Below are positions 32,148 to 43,266 of a stretch of DNA of 64,000 nucleotides, one piece after another. Location: sequence record PZ445526.1. One strand, given 5' to 3'. The stretch is from a phage. The translations under genes were made by a program, and so were the position numbers. Under the pieces are notes generated by a model. It was not told the DNA's origin and made no database searches. It worked only from the letters and a program-made list of their open reading frames with translations. Each line of letters starts with the position of its first letter. Within the stretch, counting starts at the first letter, position 1.

Positions 32148-32621
32148 TTATTTGAACGATTTAACGTACTGAATAGAACCTTTACTATTCACAAAGGCAA
32201 TTTTACCATTTTTGTTATACATGGTAGCAGTACGTTGATAACCGTAAGTTTGTTTACCAGATTGATAACCAACTAATGCGAAATTATCTTCACCCATTTT
32301 ATTCTGCTTAGCACGAATGCGTTCATGACCATGTGCCATAAGAACCTTAGCATCACCAGTTGCAATGGATCGACGAGTTTTTTCATCTTCAACTGTATTA
32401 ACAAAGTCGTCAAATGAATCAAATTTAGCATGAGATTTATTATACAGTTTTCCATCTACTGCATAATTATATCCTTGTACATCCATCTCAACTTCTGTAC
32501 CATCATCCAATACAGCAGTGATTTTTTGACCTTTTTTAAATTTCAAAAGATCAGTAAAAGATTCAGCAATAATTTGAGAATTAATAGCTGCTTCAGTAAT
32601 AAATTCTTGATATGTTTTCAT
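32148..32621 (-). CDS. internal-protein-like virion protein with capsid-targeting leader (ipII position)
   Basis: 157 aa; N-terminus MKTYQEFITEA matches the T4 IP/Alt leader; own early promoter. Confidence 0.6.
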   Translation of the reverse strand: MKTYQEFITEAAINSQIIAESFTDLLKFKKGQKITAVLDDGTEVEMDVQGYNYAVDGKLYNKSHAKFDSFDDFVNTVEDEKTRRSIATGDAKVLMAHGHERIRAKQNKMGEDNFALVGYQSGKQTYGYQRTATMYNKNGKIAFVNSKGSIQYVKSFK

Positions 32622-32674
32622 GTGTTTCCTTTAAATGTAAATATTTTTATTATTCTATCCAAGTAATTGTGAAT

Positions 32675-32703
32675 ATATTATCACAATTCTAGGAGCTGTA
32701 AAC
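32675..32703 (-). promoter_or_regulatory. T4 early promoter
   Basis: Minus strand GTTTACAGCTCCTAGAATTGTGATAATAT. Confidence 0.5.
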
Positions 32704-32739
32704 TGCTTTTATTTATAAGCGTCCCAAGTATAAGCTTTA

Positions 32740-33321
32740 TTAAGAATTACCACGGGCTGCATTAGCAACGGCGTAAGCGTACTGAATATTAGCGTCTTTA
32801 AACTTACCTTTAGAGGTATCTATTTCTGCCTTAAAGCCGCCTTTAGTCATAACATCGGCAAATTCTTTACGGAAAGCCATTGCATCAAGACCTTTCCATG
32901 ATGATTTATGCTTGGCAAATTCAAGACCGGCAAAGTTAACAGCCTTAGCTAATTTATTATCAATAACCCATTTACCGGCTTTAGGCACAAACTTCGGACC
33001 TTTCTGTTTAGAGAACAGTTTTAAATTCCAGCGGCGAAGGTCTGCATCAGCTTTAACAAATTCTGAGTCTAAGTTACTAGCAACAACATCTTCAATATGA
33101 GCAAATTTAAGTCCGTCAACTTCAATATTTAAATCGGTACGCCAGCGAAGTCCTTCCCAAGCGAAGGCTTTAAAGTCGGAAGCCTTTGTAGCTAAGTACC
33201 GTTCAATAGGAGCTGTTTTAGGGTCAAAGCCGTTTCCCGATCGGTAGGTCCACTCATCTTTATTAATGCCTTTGGCCTTTACTACAGAAGCTTCAGCAAT
33301 AAATTCTTGATAGGTTTTCAT
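32740..33321 (-). CDS. ipIII: internal protein III
   Basis: 193 aa, MKTYQEFIAEASVVKAKGINKDEWTYRSGNGFDPK...; matches T4 IPIII by recall. Confidence 0.85.
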   Translation of the reverse strand: MKTYQEFIAEASVVKAKGINKDEWTYRSGNGFDPKTAPIERYLATKASDFKAFAWEGLRWRTDLNIEVDGLKFAHIEDVVASNLDSEFVKADADLRRWNLKLFSKQKGPKFVPKAGKWVIDNKLAKAVNFAGLEFAKHKSSWKGLDAMAFRKEFADVMTKGGFKAEIDTSKGKFKDANIQYAYAVANAARGNS

Positions 33322-37606: not shown

Positions 37607-38173
37607 TTATTTGCTTAGTTTAGTTATTATAGCTTCTGCGGCAGCTTTTAGCTTAGATGCGGTGTTAATACGATTTTTAATTTCAGTATACGCATCGCCA
37701 AGAACATCAAGGCTATCAGAATAAACACTTACACTATTGCGTTCGCTATTTGAAATAGAACCTTTAGTTTTACGATCAAAATCGGTGTATACGTCTTGAA
37801 GATCGCGTGCTGCCTTCTTTGCATCATCCAATGCATCAAGAGCTTTATTCAAAGCATTAACGTATTTTTTAGTATCGAACATATTCTTAGAAATTTTAAC
37901 AGGCGCACGTTCAGGAGTAGCTAAGGCAGATTTAGGAAGAACCTGTTTGCCAGATGCCAGTTTCTTAGAAATTTTGAAAAACGCTTTATTGAAATTATTT
38001 TCTTGACTCATCGTAAAAGAACTATTATCAATGTTATACATTTCAATAGCTTTAGCTTTCCACTTAAGAAAATCGCCACGGTCTTTTGGGTCCAAGTGGA
38101 AGAATACTTTAGTAAGATCTGCTTCAGATGGTAATTTTGCTGCTTCGGTTAAAAATTCGGCATAGGTTTTCAT
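37607..38173 (-). CDS. internal-protein-like virion protein with capsid-targeting leader
   Basis: 188 aa; N-terminus MKTYAEFLTEAAKL resembles the T4 IP leader. Confidence 0.5.
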   Translation of the reverse strand: MKTYAEFLTEAAKLPSEADLTKVFFHLDPKDRGDFLKWKAKAIEMYNIDNSSFTMSQENNFNKAFFKISKKLASGKQVLPKSALATPERAPVKISKNMFDTKKYVNALNKALDALDDAKKAARDLQDVYTDFDRKTKGSISNSERNSVSVYSDSLDVLGDAYTEIKNRINTASKLKAAAEAIITKLSK

Positions 38174-38938: not shown

Positions 38939-38956
38939 ATTTTCCTCACTTATAAT

Positions 38957-39032
38957 TGGTCGAGGCAGTAGGGATCGAACCTACGACCCAGGACTTAGAA
39001 GGTCCTTGCTCTTCCTTCTGAGCTATGCCTCG
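38957..39032 (-). tRNA. tRNA-Arg (anticodon UCU)
   Basis: Hand-folded cloverleaf: acceptor CGAGGCA/UGCCUCG, anticodon loop CUUCUAA, T-loop GGUUCGAUCC, encoded CCA. Confidence 0.8.
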
Positions 39033-39036
39033 GATT

Positions 39037-39111
39037 TGGCGGACGTGATAGGATTCGAACCTATAACCAATCGCTTAACAGGCGATCGCTCTGCCATTGA
39101 GCTACACATCC
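39037..39111 (-). tRNA. tRNA-Asn (anticodon GUU)
   Basis: Acceptor GGAUGUG/CACGUCC, anticodon stem AUCGC/GCGAU with loop CUGUUAA, T-loop GGUUCGAAUCC, encoded CCA. Confidence 0.75.
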
Positions 39112-39115
39112 AAAT

Positions 39116-39202
39116 TGGTGGGGAGTGATGGAGTCGAACCACCCGAGTCGCAATGACAATGGATTTACAGTCCACACCGCTACCTCTACGGGATAACTCC
39201 CC
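39116..39202 (-). tRNA. tRNA-Tyr (anticodon GUA), long variable arm
   Basis: Acceptor GGGGAGU/ACUCCCC, anticodon loop CUGUAAA, long extra arm, T-loop GGUUCGACUCC, encoded CCA. Confidence 0.7.
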
Positions 39203-39212
39203 CAAATTAATT

Positions 39213-39287
39213 TGGTGGCCCTGGGTGGAATTGAACCACCATCTGGCGATTATGAGTCGCTTGCTTGAACCTTCCAGCTACAGGGCC
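39213..39287 (-). tRNA. tRNA with CAU anticodon (T4 tRNA-Ile counterpart, or Met)
   Basis: Acceptor GGCCCUG/CAGGGCC, anticodon loop CUCAUAA, T-loop GGUUCAAUUCC, encoded CCA; same position as T4 tRNA-Ile. Confidence 0.7.
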
Positions 39288-39288
39288 T

Positions 39289-39364
39289 TGGTGCTGATTG
39301 ACGGAATCGAACCGCCGACCTTCTCATTACAAGTGAGTTGCTCTACCTACTGAGCTAAATCAGC
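39289..39364 (-). tRNA. tRNA-Thr (anticodon UGU)
   Basis: Acceptor GCUGAUU/AAUCAGC, anticodon loop CUUGUAA, T-loop GGUUCGAUUCC, encoded CCA. Confidence 0.75.
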
Positions 39365-39369
39365 AAAAC

Positions 39370-39459
39370 TGGCGGAGGCGATAGGATTTGAACCTATGAG
39401 TCGCCGGAGCGACTGCCGGTTTTCAAGACCGGTGCATTAAACCACTCTGCCACGCCTCC
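39370..39459 (-). tRNA. tRNA-Ser (anticodon UGA), long variable arm
   Basis: Acceptor GGAGGCG/CGCCUCC, anticodon stem CCGGU/ACCGG with loop CUUGAAA, long extra arm, encoded CCA. Confidence 0.75.
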
Positions 39460-39461
39460 AG

Positions 39462-39535
39462 TCTCCGTGGCAGGATTTGAACCTACGACATTCTGCTCCC
39501 AAAGCAGACGCTCTACCAAACTGAGCTACACGGAG
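39462..39535 (-). tRNA. tRNA-Pro (anticodon UGG), CCA not encoded
   Basis: Acceptor CUCCGUG/CACGGAG, anticodon stem UCUGC/GCAGA with loop UUUGGGA; 3' end reads ...GAGACUGG. Confidence 0.75.
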
Positions 39536-39545
39536 TAAATTAAAT

Positions 39546-39619
<74 letters not shown>

Positions 39620-39624
39620 AAATT

Positions 39625-39711
39625 TGGTGCGAGAAGTGGGACTCGAACCCACAAGGAAATCATTCCGCAGCATTTTAAGTGCTGTGCCTTTACCAATTTG
39701 ACCATTCTCGC
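39625..39711 (-). tRNA. tRNA-Leu (anticodon UAA), long variable arm
   Basis: Acceptor GCGAGAA/UUCUCGC, anticodon stem CAGCA/UGCUG with loop CUUAAAA, long extra arm, encoded CCA. Confidence 0.75.
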
Positions 39712-39712
39712 G

Positions 39713-39785
39713 CTGGGAATAAAGGACTCGAACCTTTGCATCCTGGAATCAAAATCCAGTGCCTTACCAACTTGGCTAATTCCCA
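39713..39785 (-). tRNA. tRNA-Gln (anticodon UUG), CCA not encoded
   Basis: Acceptor UGGGAAU/AUUCCCA, anticodon stem CUGGA/UCCAG with loop UUUUGAU, T-loop GGUUCGAGUCC. Confidence 0.75.
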
Positions 39786-39882
39786 ATTATTAACAAAGGC
39801 TCTCTAACAAGAACCCTTGATGATAGAGGGTATTAATCAGTGCGGTATGAGTTAATAATAACAAATAATTCTTAAAGCATAT

Positions 39883-40583: not shown

Positions 40584-40769
40584 TTATTCACCTTTAGAAA
40601 TTTTATCCATAACGATAGCGATTAAACCAATTAAAAATGCTACTACAAGTGAAAACACATTTTCTGCTGTAGTTAATAATCCGCATATAAATCCAGCAAA
40701 CATTGAAAAACTAAAAGCGGAAGCAGAAATTGCAATAGCAACATTTCGAATTAATTCACAGCGTTTCAT
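40584..40769 (-). CDS. small membrane protein
   Basis: 61 aa from ATG (MKRCELIRNVAIAISASAFSFSMFAGFICGLL...); track extension is translated promoter/5'UTR. Confidence 0.45.
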   Translation of the reverse strand: MKRCELIRNVAIAISASAFSFSMFAGFICGLLTTAENVFSLVVAFLIGLIAIVMDKISKGE

Positions 40770-40797
40770 TTTATTCTCCTCAGTAGTTGATAGTGTA

Positions 40798-40827
40798 ATA
40801 GTATCACAACTAAAACCGCATGTAAAC
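40798..40827 (-). promoter_or_regulatory. T4 early promoter cassette
   Basis: Minus strand GTTTACATGCGGTTTTAGTTGTGATACTATTACACTATCAACTACTGAGGAGAATAAAATG. Confidence 0.55.
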
Positions 40828-40830
40828 AAT

Positions 40831-41055
40831 TTATTCAACACCAGCGGCTTTCAAAAGTTTCTTAAGATTGGCAACACCTTGAGCAGAAAATGTGACCTTG
40901 CCACCTTTTTCACTGATAGAACCAACCAATTTAGCAAGTTTATCATTAGGAATTTTTTTAAAATCAGCCAATGTTCCATCAAAGGTTTTTGAAACAAAAG
41001 GCAGTTCATCTTCATGTCTTTTAGCTTCTACAATAAATTTTTGATATGTTTTCAT
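40831..41055 (-). CDS. internal-protein-like virion protein with capsid-targeting leader
   Basis: 74 aa from ATG: MKTYQKFIVEAKRHEDELPF...; own early promoter. Confidence 0.55.
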   Translation of the reverse strand: MKTYQKFIVEAKRHEDELPFVSKTFDGTLADFKKIPNDKLAKLVGSISEKGGKVTFSAQGVANLKKLLKAAGVE

Positions 41056-41091
41056 TTTATTCTCCAATTTCACATTTGTTTTGATAGGGTA

Positions 41092-41121
41092 ATAGTATCA
41101 CTACCCCATCTAAAAGTAAAC
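41092..41121 (-). promoter_or_regulatory. T4 early promoter cassette
   Basis: Minus strand GTTTACTTTTAGATGGGGTAGTGATACTATTACCCTATCAAAAC. Confidence 0.55.
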
Positions 41122-41131
41122 AGTTTATAAA

Positions 41132-41440
41132 CTATTTTATTCCGCGTGATGCAATTGTGTTCTGTCGTTTAACACCAGTTTGTTTAAAGTCATGATTGTC
41201 GATTTGATCGGTACGAGCAACTCCGAATGATGATTTGATCTTAGCTTTAGATCCTTTAGTTATAGAAATAAACATCTCAGAAGCCCCTTTCTTAAAGTCC
41301 GAGGCGATTACTTCAACGCCGTTCTTAGCAAGTGACTTCAGAATTGCCTCCGCGTATTCATCGTCAAGACTTGCCTGAGTATTAATAACGAATGTCTTTG
41401 GCGCAGCCGCTTCATTGATAAATTCTTTAAATGTTTTCAT
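41132..41440 (-). CDS. internal-protein-like virion protein with capsid-targeting leader
   Basis: 102 aa: MKTFKEFINEAAAPKTFVINTQ...; own early promoter. Confidence 0.55.
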   Translation of the reverse strand: MKTFKEFINEAAAPKTFVINTQASLDDEYAEAILKSLAKNGVEVIASDFKKGASEMFISITKGSKAKIKSSFGVARTDQIDNHDFKQTGVKRQNTIASRGIK

Positions 41441-41470
41441 TTTATTTTCCTAATTAATTTTGATAGGGTA

Positions 41471-41500
41471 ATAGTATCACTACCCTATTTAAAAGTAAAC
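41471..41500 (-). promoter_or_regulatory. T4 early promoter cassette
   Basis: Minus strand GTTTACTTTTAAATAGGGTAGTGATACTATTACCCTATCA. Confidence 0.55.
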
Positions 41501-41773
41501 TCATTTTAAATAAATTGCGTATTTTTTATAACCCGCTGACTCATGACGAAGACCCTTATCATTAGCAAAACGCTCAATGTTGTTAATTTGATTCTGATCA
41601 AGTTCAGAGATGTCAAACACGAAAAAGTTACGTTTGTTACCAACTGTTATATAGTCAGTTAAATCAATATCATATAGGTAATTGATGTCAGCAATCAAAG
41701 TCTTGACAGCTTTGCTAATTTTTACTTTTTCGTTAAAAGCAGCTTCAGCAATAAATTCTTGATACGTTTTCAT
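41501..41773 (-). CDS. internal-protein-like virion protein with capsid-targeting leader
   Basis: 90 aa from ATG: MKTYQEFIAEAAFNEKVKISKAVKT...; identical leader to IPIII. Confidence 0.55.
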   Translation of the reverse strand: MKTYQEFIAEAAFNEKVKISKAVKTLIADINYLYDIDLTDYITVGNKRNFFVFDISELDQNQINNIERFANDKGLRHESAGYKKYAIYLK

Positions 41774-41801
41774 TTTATTCTCCTCAGTAGTTGATAGGGT
41801 A

Positions 41802-41831
41802 ATAGTATCACTACTAAAACCCAGTGTAAAC
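41802..41831 (-). promoter_or_regulatory. T4 early promoter cassette
   Basis: Minus strand GTTTACACTGGGTTTTAGTAGTGATACTATTACCCTATCAACTACTGAGGAGAATAAAATG. Confidence 0.55.
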
Positions 41832-41843
41832 AACTTTGTGAAA

Positions 41844-42540
<697 letters not shown>

Positions 42541-42541
<1 letters not shown>

Positions 42542-43266
42542 TATAGTACCTTTAGTGTATTTTTAATTTTAGAAAAAAGTTCTTCAAGAGAACCATCGTT
42601 TGTAATTACTAAATCGCCATCACGAATTGGCAATCCAGCTTCTGTAATATGTGTATCATTGGATTTTTGACCAGGACGAACTACATGAATTACTGTAGCA
42701 CCCATCGCCCTAGCCGCATCCATTTCATGATCTTGACGGGTATCAGGAACGATATAATAATCATAACCTGAGTTAAATTTATCAAGATAATCTAAAGCAA
42801 ATAATTTTACCCAGTACATGCGGTCGAAGTTATTAACAATCAAATCCGTACCTAGGGCTTGCATCAGACGACGGACTGACCATTGATCTTCAATATTATT
42901 TATAACGTCAATAATCTTGTTAAATGCTACGGAATTAACTGATTCTTGTCCTTCGTCATCAAAAACAAACACACCCTTAATTGGGCTTTTACCATTAAGA
43001 TAGCAAAATGCTTGTTCCATAATCGTGATTACTTCTAATTTAGTCAGATTTAAATTAGTCTCACGATCATAGTCAATTCCTTCAAACTCTTTACGAGTTA
43101 AGCAAGGATAGTCAGTGTTTGCTGCAAATACTCCCCATGCATAAGCCAATGCATCCTTAATAGGACCAGCAAGTTGGTATTTAACTGCAGAATAATTGCT
43201 CATGATAAAATCAGCAGTAGTATCTTTTCCACTACGCTTTACACCGCTTAAAAAGATTAGTTTCAT
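42541..43266 (-). CDS. 1: deoxynucleoside monophosphate kinase
   Basis: 241 aa from ATG (MKLIFLSGVKRSGKDTTADFI...), P-loop GVKRSGKDT. Confidence 0.9.

Follow-up and report, generated by a model that had tools for sequence, protein, structure and literature searches.

Background

The internal proteins (IPs) of phage T4 are small, basic proteins which are carried in the head at roughly 300 copies each (PMC9026906). They are marked by an N-terminal capsid-targeting sequence (CTS), of which ten residues suffice for the packaging of foreign proteins in T4. Mutagenesis of the CTS of T4 IPIII assigned residues 4 and 7 to targeting and residues 8 and 10 to processing, the prohead protease gp21 cutting after the motif L/I-x-E, and in the case of Alt the propeptide that is lost amounts to 7 residues only (PMC9026906). 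T4 Ip1, Ip2 and Ip3 are each active against a single GmrSD variant, and none protects against the variants blocked by the other two (Silas et al. 2025, PMC12373910), and the authors of that study proposed that all the proteins of both Ip loci target GmrSD variants.

A close characterised relative of the locus described here is T4 ipI, located between 57B and trna.4, whose small basic product is processed by gp21 and, as IPI*, inhibits the GmrSD of E. coli CT596. A richer version of the same locus occurs in phage RB15. As far as the RB15 GenBank entry (Repoila et al. 1994, EMBO J 13:4181) records them, ip9, ip7 and ip8 were first described there, in the same order and with the same leader and promoter cassette, and they are not new. 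Locus, leader and cassette, together with the notion of shuffling, likewise go back to 1994, as later papers summarise that work; the anti-defence idea was put in print between 2007 and 2025.

Two further systems invite comparison. The PeSL cassettes of RB49 and phi1 (Arbiol et al. 2010, PMC2839356) combine an intergenic promoter with a stem-loop and lie on either side of small accessory genes, where recombination between them allows modules to be shuffled; the same authors class the T-even IP elements as analogues of PeSL and not as homologues. Anti-CRISPR and other anti-defence hotspots gather unrelated small inhibitors at one site, and anti-restriction proteins such as P1 DarA/B and T7 Ocr reach or are made in the host as soon as infection begins (PMC12373910, PMC5512222). 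The present locus resembles these hotspots and injected proteins and would differ from them, by analogy with T4, in delivery via a cleavable 10-residue tag that the T4 scaffolding core and gp21 recognise, an address-tag mechanism specific to T4-like phages.

Results and discussion

Identity and genomic context of the three genes

The window, that is, the whole 64-kb stretch of phage DNA that was analysed, belongs to a Tequatrovirus (T4-like phage). The locus is matched by 685 phage records, nearly all of them from Tequatrovirus and its relatives, the best match being Escherichia phage 310Ecol104PP (97.6%), and the arrangement of the window is covered to 80% or more by only 19 of the 685. Five minus-strand genes lie in 40,584-42,302 (Table 1) and the gene order is that of T4, namely gp2, gp3, gp1, 57A, 57B, the array, trna.4, trna.3, trna.2 and the tRNA cluster. 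Where T4 has the single gene ipI, the window has three ORFs, and testing of the array's location placed it in the 57B/Acb1-trna.4 interval, one of the two IP loci (57B-trna.4 and denV-e). An earlier note on this DNA had put three minus-strand ORFs with the starts MKTYQKFIVEA, MKTFKEFINEA and MKTYQEFIAEA at the T4 ipI locus, and both the ORFs and the placement were confirmed.

The two flanking genes are readily recognised. The product of 57B matches the Pfam family PF23474 (Acb1) at 2.7e-60; the array therefore adjoins the gene of an anti-CBASS protein. On the other side, the trna.4 homologue, which starts MKRCELIR and is without a CTS, matches phrog_1692 at 5.7e-35, holds the position of T4 trna.4 and in OR062946 bears the label '6.6 kDa protein in segB-ipI intergenic region'.

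By sequence comparison, the three ORFs between them are the already named T-even internal-protein genes ip9, ip7 and ip8. Their products share 96.7% (Ip9), 100% (Ip7) and 100% (Ip8) amino acid identity with the RB15 proteins CAA84463-CAA84465, and Ip7 is 98% identical to T2 ip7. The RB15 locus as a whole has the same three genes in the same order, the same flanks (57B and trna.4), the same leader and the same promoter/inverted-repeat cassettes, with 95.7% nucleotide identity over 1125 bp; unlike RB15, the window is without ip5. In PHROGs, ip9, ip7 and ip8 correspond to phrog_7673, phrog_2667 (2.2e-41) and phrog_8765 ('internal virion protein', 3.4e-25), the labels being internal head or internal virion protein, and RefSeq NC_054918 annotates the same three genes as internal head/virion proteins. 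All three ATG starts lie 6-8 nt downstream of GGAG/AGGA ribosome-binding sites. Longer, TTG- or GTG-initiated versions of the ORFs do not agree with the starts that related genomes annotate. Across 50,697 phage records, Ip7 was found in 284, Ip9 in 193 and Ip8 in 108.

Table 1. Coordinates of the internal-protein array, its promoter cassettes and flanking genes, and of further internal-protein-like genes in the window
Feature	Coordinates	Strand	Description
57B (Acb1, anti-CBASS phosphodiesterase)	41844..42302	-	152 aa; upstream boundary of the IP array; position as T4 57B
Cassette copy 1, subtype A	41774..41843	-	upstream of ip9; GTTTAC 41831-41826, TACTAT 41807-41802 preceded by TG; RBS GAGGAG
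ip9	41501..41773	-	internal protein precursor of 90 aa with leader MKTYQEFIAE↓A; 80 aa (pI 8.2) predicted for the mature form
Cassette copy 2, subtype B	41441..41500	-	upstream of ip7; GTTTAC 41500-41495, TACTAT 41476-41471
ip7	41132..41440	-	internal protein precursor of 102 aa with leader MKTFKEFINE↓A; 92 aa (pI 9.65) predicted for the mature form
Cassette copy 3, subtype B variant with longer 5'UTR	41056..41131	-	upstream of ip8; GTTTAC 41121-41116, TACTAT 41097-41092
ip8	40831..41055	-	internal protein precursor of 74 aa with leader MKTYQKFIVE↓A; 64 aa (pI 9.6) predicted for the mature form
Cassette copy 4, subtype A	40773..40830	-	upstream of leaderless trna.4 homologue
trna.4 homologue	40584..40772	-	62-aa hydrophobic membrane-type protein; downstream boundary of the IP array
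Unannotated 188-aa ORF	37607..38173		starts MKTYAEFLTEA, CTS-like leader
Second IP locus	32148..33321	-	ip4 and ipIII; either gene has a GTTTAC/inverted-repeat cassette in a version of its own
ip4	32148..32621	-	157 aa; annotated ipIV/Ip4 in other records
ipIII	32740..33321	-	193 aa; 100% identity with T4 IPIII in the 182 residues of the mature part that were compared

Leader peptides and mature domains

A search of the window with the pattern MKT[YF].[EK]F[IL].EA returned 6 ORFs and none in 200 shuffles; besides the array, the matches are ip4, ipIII and a 188-aa ORF (Table 1). The three leaders of the array all keep Y/F4, F7, I8 and E10, followed by Ala, so that the residues required in T4 for targeting and processing are conserved, and the gp21 motif L/I-x-E can be read at residues 8-10 of each (IAE↓A, INE↓A and IVE↓A, from the motif only). 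The assignment of these N-termini to the capsid-targeting type of the T4 IPs, made previously from the letters of the window, is supported. The leaders of T4 ipII and ipIII and of ip4 and ipIII in the window are identical or near-identical to them (MKTYQEFIAEA/MKTYQEFITEA), while that of T4 IPI, unlike those of the array, is a 19-residue variant (MKTFKEFTSTTTPVSTITE↓A).

The predicted mature forms of Ip7, Ip8 and Ip9 are small and basic like the T4 IPs (6.8-9.9 kDa, pI 8.2-9.7). Pairwise BLASTP among Ip7, Ip8, Ip9, RB15 Ip5, Ip4, T4 IPI/II/III and the 188-aa ORF gave E > 0.09 throughout, the exception being the IPIII of the window against its T4 orthologue. The mature parts are thus unrelated to each other and to IPIII, as had been claimed, and the mature domain of IPI is likewise without detectable similarity to Ip7, Ip8 and Ip9.

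The 188-aa ORF belongs to neither of the classical IP loci: it sits in the interval that separates the e.8 region from the tRNA cluster, and no GTTTAC cassette was found with it. Among the 25 of 165 matching Tequatrovirus records that were listed, it is hypothetical, unnamed or without annotation, and never an internal protein. Its leader raises the possibility of an internal protein encoded at a third locus.

Promoter cassettes and possible late expression

Four direct-repeat copies of a 55-69-nt intergenic cassette, spaced by 294, 379 and 331 nt, separate the genes of the array. They share a 21-nt core, GTGATACTATTACCCTATCAA, which is exact in three copies, carries one mismatch in copy 4 and is absent elsewhere in the window; copies 1 and 4 are 91% identical over 69 nt. 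Each cassette contains GTTTAC, a 17-nt spacer (counted from the TTTAC(A/T) -35 hexamer) and TACTAT with an upstream TG, as in T4 early promoters. Of the 14 GTTTAC-type motifs in the window, four fall within these 1.1 kb, and every one of the 14 is on the minus strand, which is the one transcribed early. A generic sigma-70 scan recognised two of the four cassette promoters, missing the others because the combination of -35 TTTACT and -10 TACTAT scores 8/12, below the cut-off; a T4-early-specific pattern finds all four.

An inverted repeat (ATAGGGTA/TACCCTAT) covers the -10 element before ip7, with a G-T variant before ip8 and a compensatory variant (TGATGAGGTA/TACCTCATCA) in the T4 ipI and RB15 ip5 cassettes. 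The stems are AT-rich (-12.7 to -16.8 kcal/mol), and in three of the four copies they score z = -1.3 to -2.9 against shuffled controls, the stem-loop of copy 3 reaching -2.9; copy 4 has no significant stem (z = +0.26). A terminator scan of the cassettes found none, and no stem is followed by a U-tract. PeSL cassettes are defined by a sigma-70-like promoter together with a stable GC-rich stem-loop acting as a terminator; the IP cassettes are built on T4 early promoters and their stems are weaker and AT-rich.

The cassettes fall into two subtypes, which differ in spacer and 5'UTR. Subtype A precedes ip9 and trna.4; subtype B precedes ip7, T4 ipI and RB15 ip5, and the copy before ip8 is a variant of B. 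The leaderless trna.4 has such a cassette in T4 as well, so that the cassette marks module boundaries of the locus in general and is no property of the CTS genes. The earlier note had described an early promoter/5'UTR cassette for each leader-bearing gene, and this holds in that a GTTTAC-N17-TACTAT cassette stands before every one of them; it has to be amended in that a fourth copy serves a leaderless gene and that two subtypes exist. For T4 ipII and ipIII and for the ip4 and ipIII genes of the window, too, every gene has its GTTTAC promoter, the -10 element of which is overlapped by an inverted repeat, but ip4/ipIII-type cassettes, unlike those of the ip9-ip7-ip8 array, belong to another sequence family (GAATTGTGATAgTATATTCACAATT).

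A further difference concerns late expression. A consensus late promoter (TATAAATA) lies upstream of ip4, at 32717, while none was found inside the ip9-ip7-ip8 array, the nearest upstream on the right strand being at 42904, inside gene 1. Protein for prohead assembly would therefore have to come from early synthesis or from read-through, for which an upstream late promoter such as that at 42904 may be the source.

Early-type promoters at every gene, no consensus late promoter within the array and the use of the same cassette to drive the leaderless trna.4 would fit early accessory genes acting in the cytoplasm, unpackaged, with the shared N-terminus as a by-product of a recombining promoter/5'UTR/start cassette. 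Several observations make such an account highly improbable: the conserved stretch runs 30 nt into the coding region, the residues for targeting and gp21 cleavage are exactly preserved while nucleotides and other residues vary, and ten leader residues are sufficient for packaging foreign proteins in T4 (PMC9026906). Moreover, more distant members of the Ip9 family keep a leader that is similar though divergent, MKSFKEF[VL]TES, which points to selection on the peptide.

Polymorphism and probable shuffling of the array

Gene identity, leader, cassette anatomy and polymorphism between phages are direct observations of this work. Six different arrays were found at the same site among the compared phages: ipI in T4; ip5-ip7 in T2; ip5-ip9-ip7-ip8 in RB15; ip9-ip7-ip8 in the window, G4498 and 310Ecol104PP; ip9-ip7 in Pu-Krd-SF4; and, in KIT06, a gene for a 95-aa internal head protein, genes of the size and position of ip9 and ip7, and a 42-aa ORF. 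An apparent Ip7::Ip9 chimera (P0017, phage OLB35) was set aside, its record being flagged UNVERIFIED.

In RB15, ip5 is bracketed by a 31-nt direct repeat, GATTTAAAATAATTTCACAAAGTTGTTTACA, which covers the last codons of 57B and of ip5, and a single crossover between the two copies would give exactly the 57B-ip9 junction of the window. On the sequences compared, this repeat-junction pattern fits the published model of cassette-mediated modular shuffling. Each gene is a self-contained module made of an early promoter, an inverted repeat, a short 5'UTR with a strong RBS, the 10-residue leader and an unrelated basic domain, and the near-identical cassettes and leaders would act as patches of homology for recombination. 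Exchange across such patches would allow whole modules to be gained, lost and reordered between phages, which would explain the different arrays at one site.

Proposed function of Ip7, Ip8 and Ip9

This is very probably an ipI-type polymorphic IP locus, in which ip9, ip7 and ip8 would encode CTS-tagged, gp21-cleaved and injected proteins that most likely block GmrSD-type nucleases. By analogy with T4 IPI, IPII and IPIII, the leader would attach the precursor to the scaffolding core while the prohead assembles; gp21 would then cut after I-x-E10, and the mature proteins would be retained in the head with the DNA and ejected along with it into the next host. Their most likely role there would be to bind host nucleases directed against glucosyl-hmC DNA (GmrSD-type type IV enzymes) and so to block them, each Ip presumably having a narrow target of its own. 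Packaging, cleavage, injection and anti-restriction function are thus attributed to Ip7, Ip8 and Ip9 by analogy, and the anti-defence reading follows a published hypothesis. The suggestion that these genes are candidate injected anti-defence effectors agrees with that view, although the genes were already named and annotated and do not form an unrecognised array. Neither proteomic data from virions nor reports of cleavage or of a phenotype turned up for Ip7, Ip8 or Ip9 in the literature that was searched.

Homology searches with the three proteins gave only sub-threshold noise in Pfam, nothing in NCBIfam and nothing below E = 0.02 in the PDB sequence search, and their mature domains have no sequence or fold similarity to the characterised GmrSD inhibitors IPI*, Ip2 and Ip3. 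In comparisons of the modelled domains with solved structures, no specific resemblance was found beyond generic ferredoxin-like or ACT-like folds. The AF2 model of Ip7, a weaker one (pLDDT 66.6), predicts that residues 15-71 fold into an ACT/RRM-like core, followed by a basic tail that is disordered and rich in Lys and Arg. The predicted folds point to no enzyme and would be compatible with small binding proteins of whatever target.

Folds that indicate neither an enzyme nor a known inhibitor, the basic pI of all the predicted mature forms, the Lys/Arg-rich tail of Ip7 and the copy number of T4 IPs quoted above (PMC9026906) could also describe proteins which are packaged as generic core or DNA-associated components, contributing to charge neutralisation, head filling or DNA ejection with no specific host target. 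We consider this unlikely. It leaves unexplained both the frequent swapping of unrelated folded domains at one site and the fact that three of three T4 IPs are highly specific nuclease inhibitors (PMC12373910), while the conserved, well-packed domain of Ip9, with its invariant residues, suggests a specific surface. Blocking of GmrSD-type nucleases is retained as the preferred function; T4 Ip2 and Ip3 are inhibitors of GmrSD variants (PMC12373910).

The Ip9 domain outside T4-like phages

The findings on the Ip9 domain beyond the T4-like phages go slightly past the literature consulted. An exhaustive HMMER search of 1.84 billion representatives recovered 18 cluster representatives of the Ip9 family, some of them with the divergent leader mentioned above and others leaderless. 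A leaderless 72-aa protein is 50% identical to residues 19-90 of Ip9 and starts exactly at the end of leader and linker; in phage contigs of ~41-45 kb it is the first gene of a rightward operon, behind a divergent intergenic region of ~480 bp, a position typical of first-expressed anti-defence genes. In Ackermannviridae, a 755-aa protein of Kuttervirus maane carries the domain at its C-terminus, and a 1096-aa protein from an Aglimvirinae phage contains it internally. Pfam found no domains in these large proteins, their sole match being phrog_3867, which has no function assigned there.

The occurrence of the Ip9 domain with and without a leader fits, at the level of sequence, the CTS as a portable tag on pre-existing phage accessory domains. 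As the homologues occur in phage types without evidence of hmC DNA, it also argues against a strictly glucosyl-hmC-specific target, at least for Ip9. The three proteins might then be injected anti-defence effectors of which at least Ip9 is aimed at something other than a glucosyl-hmC-dependent type IV enzyme, a version that we put forward tentatively. In its favour are the operon-first stand-alone homologue, the presence of the same domain inside the two Ackermannviridae proteins and the composition of the family, which is small and includes both leader-bearing and leaderless members. Against it, the GmrSD family shows extreme diversity and includes enzymes that act on other modifications, and the Ips characterised to date lead to GmrSD in three cases out of three (PMC12373910). 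Taken one step further, and as a speculation which we find possible yet doubtful, Ip9 could derive, by addition of the address tag, from an early anti-defence protein that is free-standing and common to unrelated phages, its target being a defence system not specific to glucosyl-hmC, and the CTS could be a portable tag which T4-like phages have grafted, time and again, onto anti-defence domains captured from other phages.

Conclusions

With GmrSD-type nucleases as their most likely targets, Ip7, Ip8 and Ip9 are three concrete candidates for injected proteins that inhibit the defence nucleases of the host. At the frequencies given above, they count as common among T4-like phages of the therapeutic type, and they probably influence host range. 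For Ip9, the leaderless homologues offer a simple handle for finding the target. If Ip9 is indeed a tagged copy of a free-standing protein, grafting of the CTS would turn expressed inhibitors into pre-loaded, injected ones.

Promoters of the internal-protein genes

The repeated early-promoter/5'UTR cassette of the internal-protein (IP) array is not confined to genes with a capsid-targeting leader, as a fourth copy drives the trna.4 homologue, which lacks one (see table); the same arrangement, a cassette before a leaderless gene, occurs in T4. An inverted repeat spans the -10 element, and where one of its arms differs from copy to copy the other differs to match (ATAGGGTA/TACCCTAT vs TGATGAGGTA/TACCTCATCA), suggesting selection on the palindrome itself, whether as a protein-binding site or as an RNA or DNA hairpin. 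The cassettes of the second IP locus, before ip4 and ipIII, belong to a different sequence family, in which the palindrome spanning the -10 element reads GAATTGTGA...TCACAATT. In T4, ipII occupies the position of ip4, whereas the mature IPIII protein is identical in the two phages by sequence comparison.

A consensus T4 late-promoter motif precedes ip4. No motif of the TATAAATA type was found within the ip9-ip7-ip8 array itself; one lies further upstream, ahead of 57A, 57B and the array, and late read-through transcription from it could reach the IP genes.

Features of the internal-protein loci and related sequences
Feature	Location	Strand	Details
ip4	window 32148-32621	-	157 aa; second IP locus
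Late promoter TATAAATA	window 32717		consensus; upstream of ip4
ipIII	window 32740-33321	-	second IP locus
188-aa ORF	window 37607-38173	-	starts MKTYAEFLTEA; leader like the capsid-targeting sequence, with L-x-E|A site
tRNA cluster (expected)	window 38950-39800	-	10 tRNAs
trna.4 homologue	window 40584-40772	-	62 aa, hydrophobic
Fourth cassette copy	window 40773-40830	-	subtype A; 91% identical to copy before ip9
Cassettes compared for inverted repeat	window 41471-41490, 41092-41111; T4 (L004) before ipI; RB15 (L003) before ip5
Ip9 mature domain	window 41504-41719		Ip9 residues ~19-90
Gene 57B (Acb1)	window 41844-42302	-	Pfam PF23474, 2.7e-60
Late-promoter motif TATAAATA	window 42897-42904	-	consensus T4; inside gene 1 (dNMP kinase)
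Ip9-domain loci elsewhere	L005 3007-3225; L006 2974-3231; L007 2959-3201; L008-L010 5001-5219
ORF labelled 'ip7 protein'	L015 1258-1491		77 aa; Escherichia phage OLB35, MH992122

A candidate internal protein outside the classical loci

The 188-aa ORF is a candidate for an unrecognised internal protein. It is located outside both classical IP loci, flanked by the e.8 region on one side and the tRNA cluster on the other, with a terminator-like hairpin upstream and no GTTTAC cassette, and its predicted mature product has a pI of 9.5. The protein is assigned to phrog_2280 (unknown function) and is held by 165 Tequatrovirus records, none of the 25 listed annotating it as an internal protein; no homologue was found in T4 e.2-e.8. 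From closely related annotated genomes, the tRNA cluster of this phage should encode tRNAs for Arg, Asn, Tyr, Met, Thr, Ser, Pro, Gly, Leu and Gln. T4 has eight tRNAs interrupted by segB, a gene not identified among the ORFs of the window interval expected to hold the cluster.

The Ip9 domain beyond the array

The Ip9 mature domain forms a small family, for which a set of 1.84 billion proteins yields no more than 18 representatives at 50% identity; in some of its members the leader is present in a divergent form, MKSFKEF[VL]TES. Without a leader, the domain occurs both as a 72-aa protein whose gene opens an operon in phages of ~41-45 kb, and as part of Ackermannviridae proteins of 755 and 1096 aa (phrog_3867). 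The OLB35 ORF, from a record flagged UNVERIFIED, is a chimera in which Ip7 residues 29-72 are fused to the C-terminal end (~33 residues) of an Ip9-type protein, and is either a product of recombination within an IP array or an assembly artefact.

An anti-defence neighbour

Directly upstream of the array lies gene 57B, for which the label 'RNA ligase' persists in several public records. Its product is Acb1, the anti-CBASS cyclic-nucleotide phosphodiesterase, so that the IP array borders directly on a gene of proven anti-defence function.
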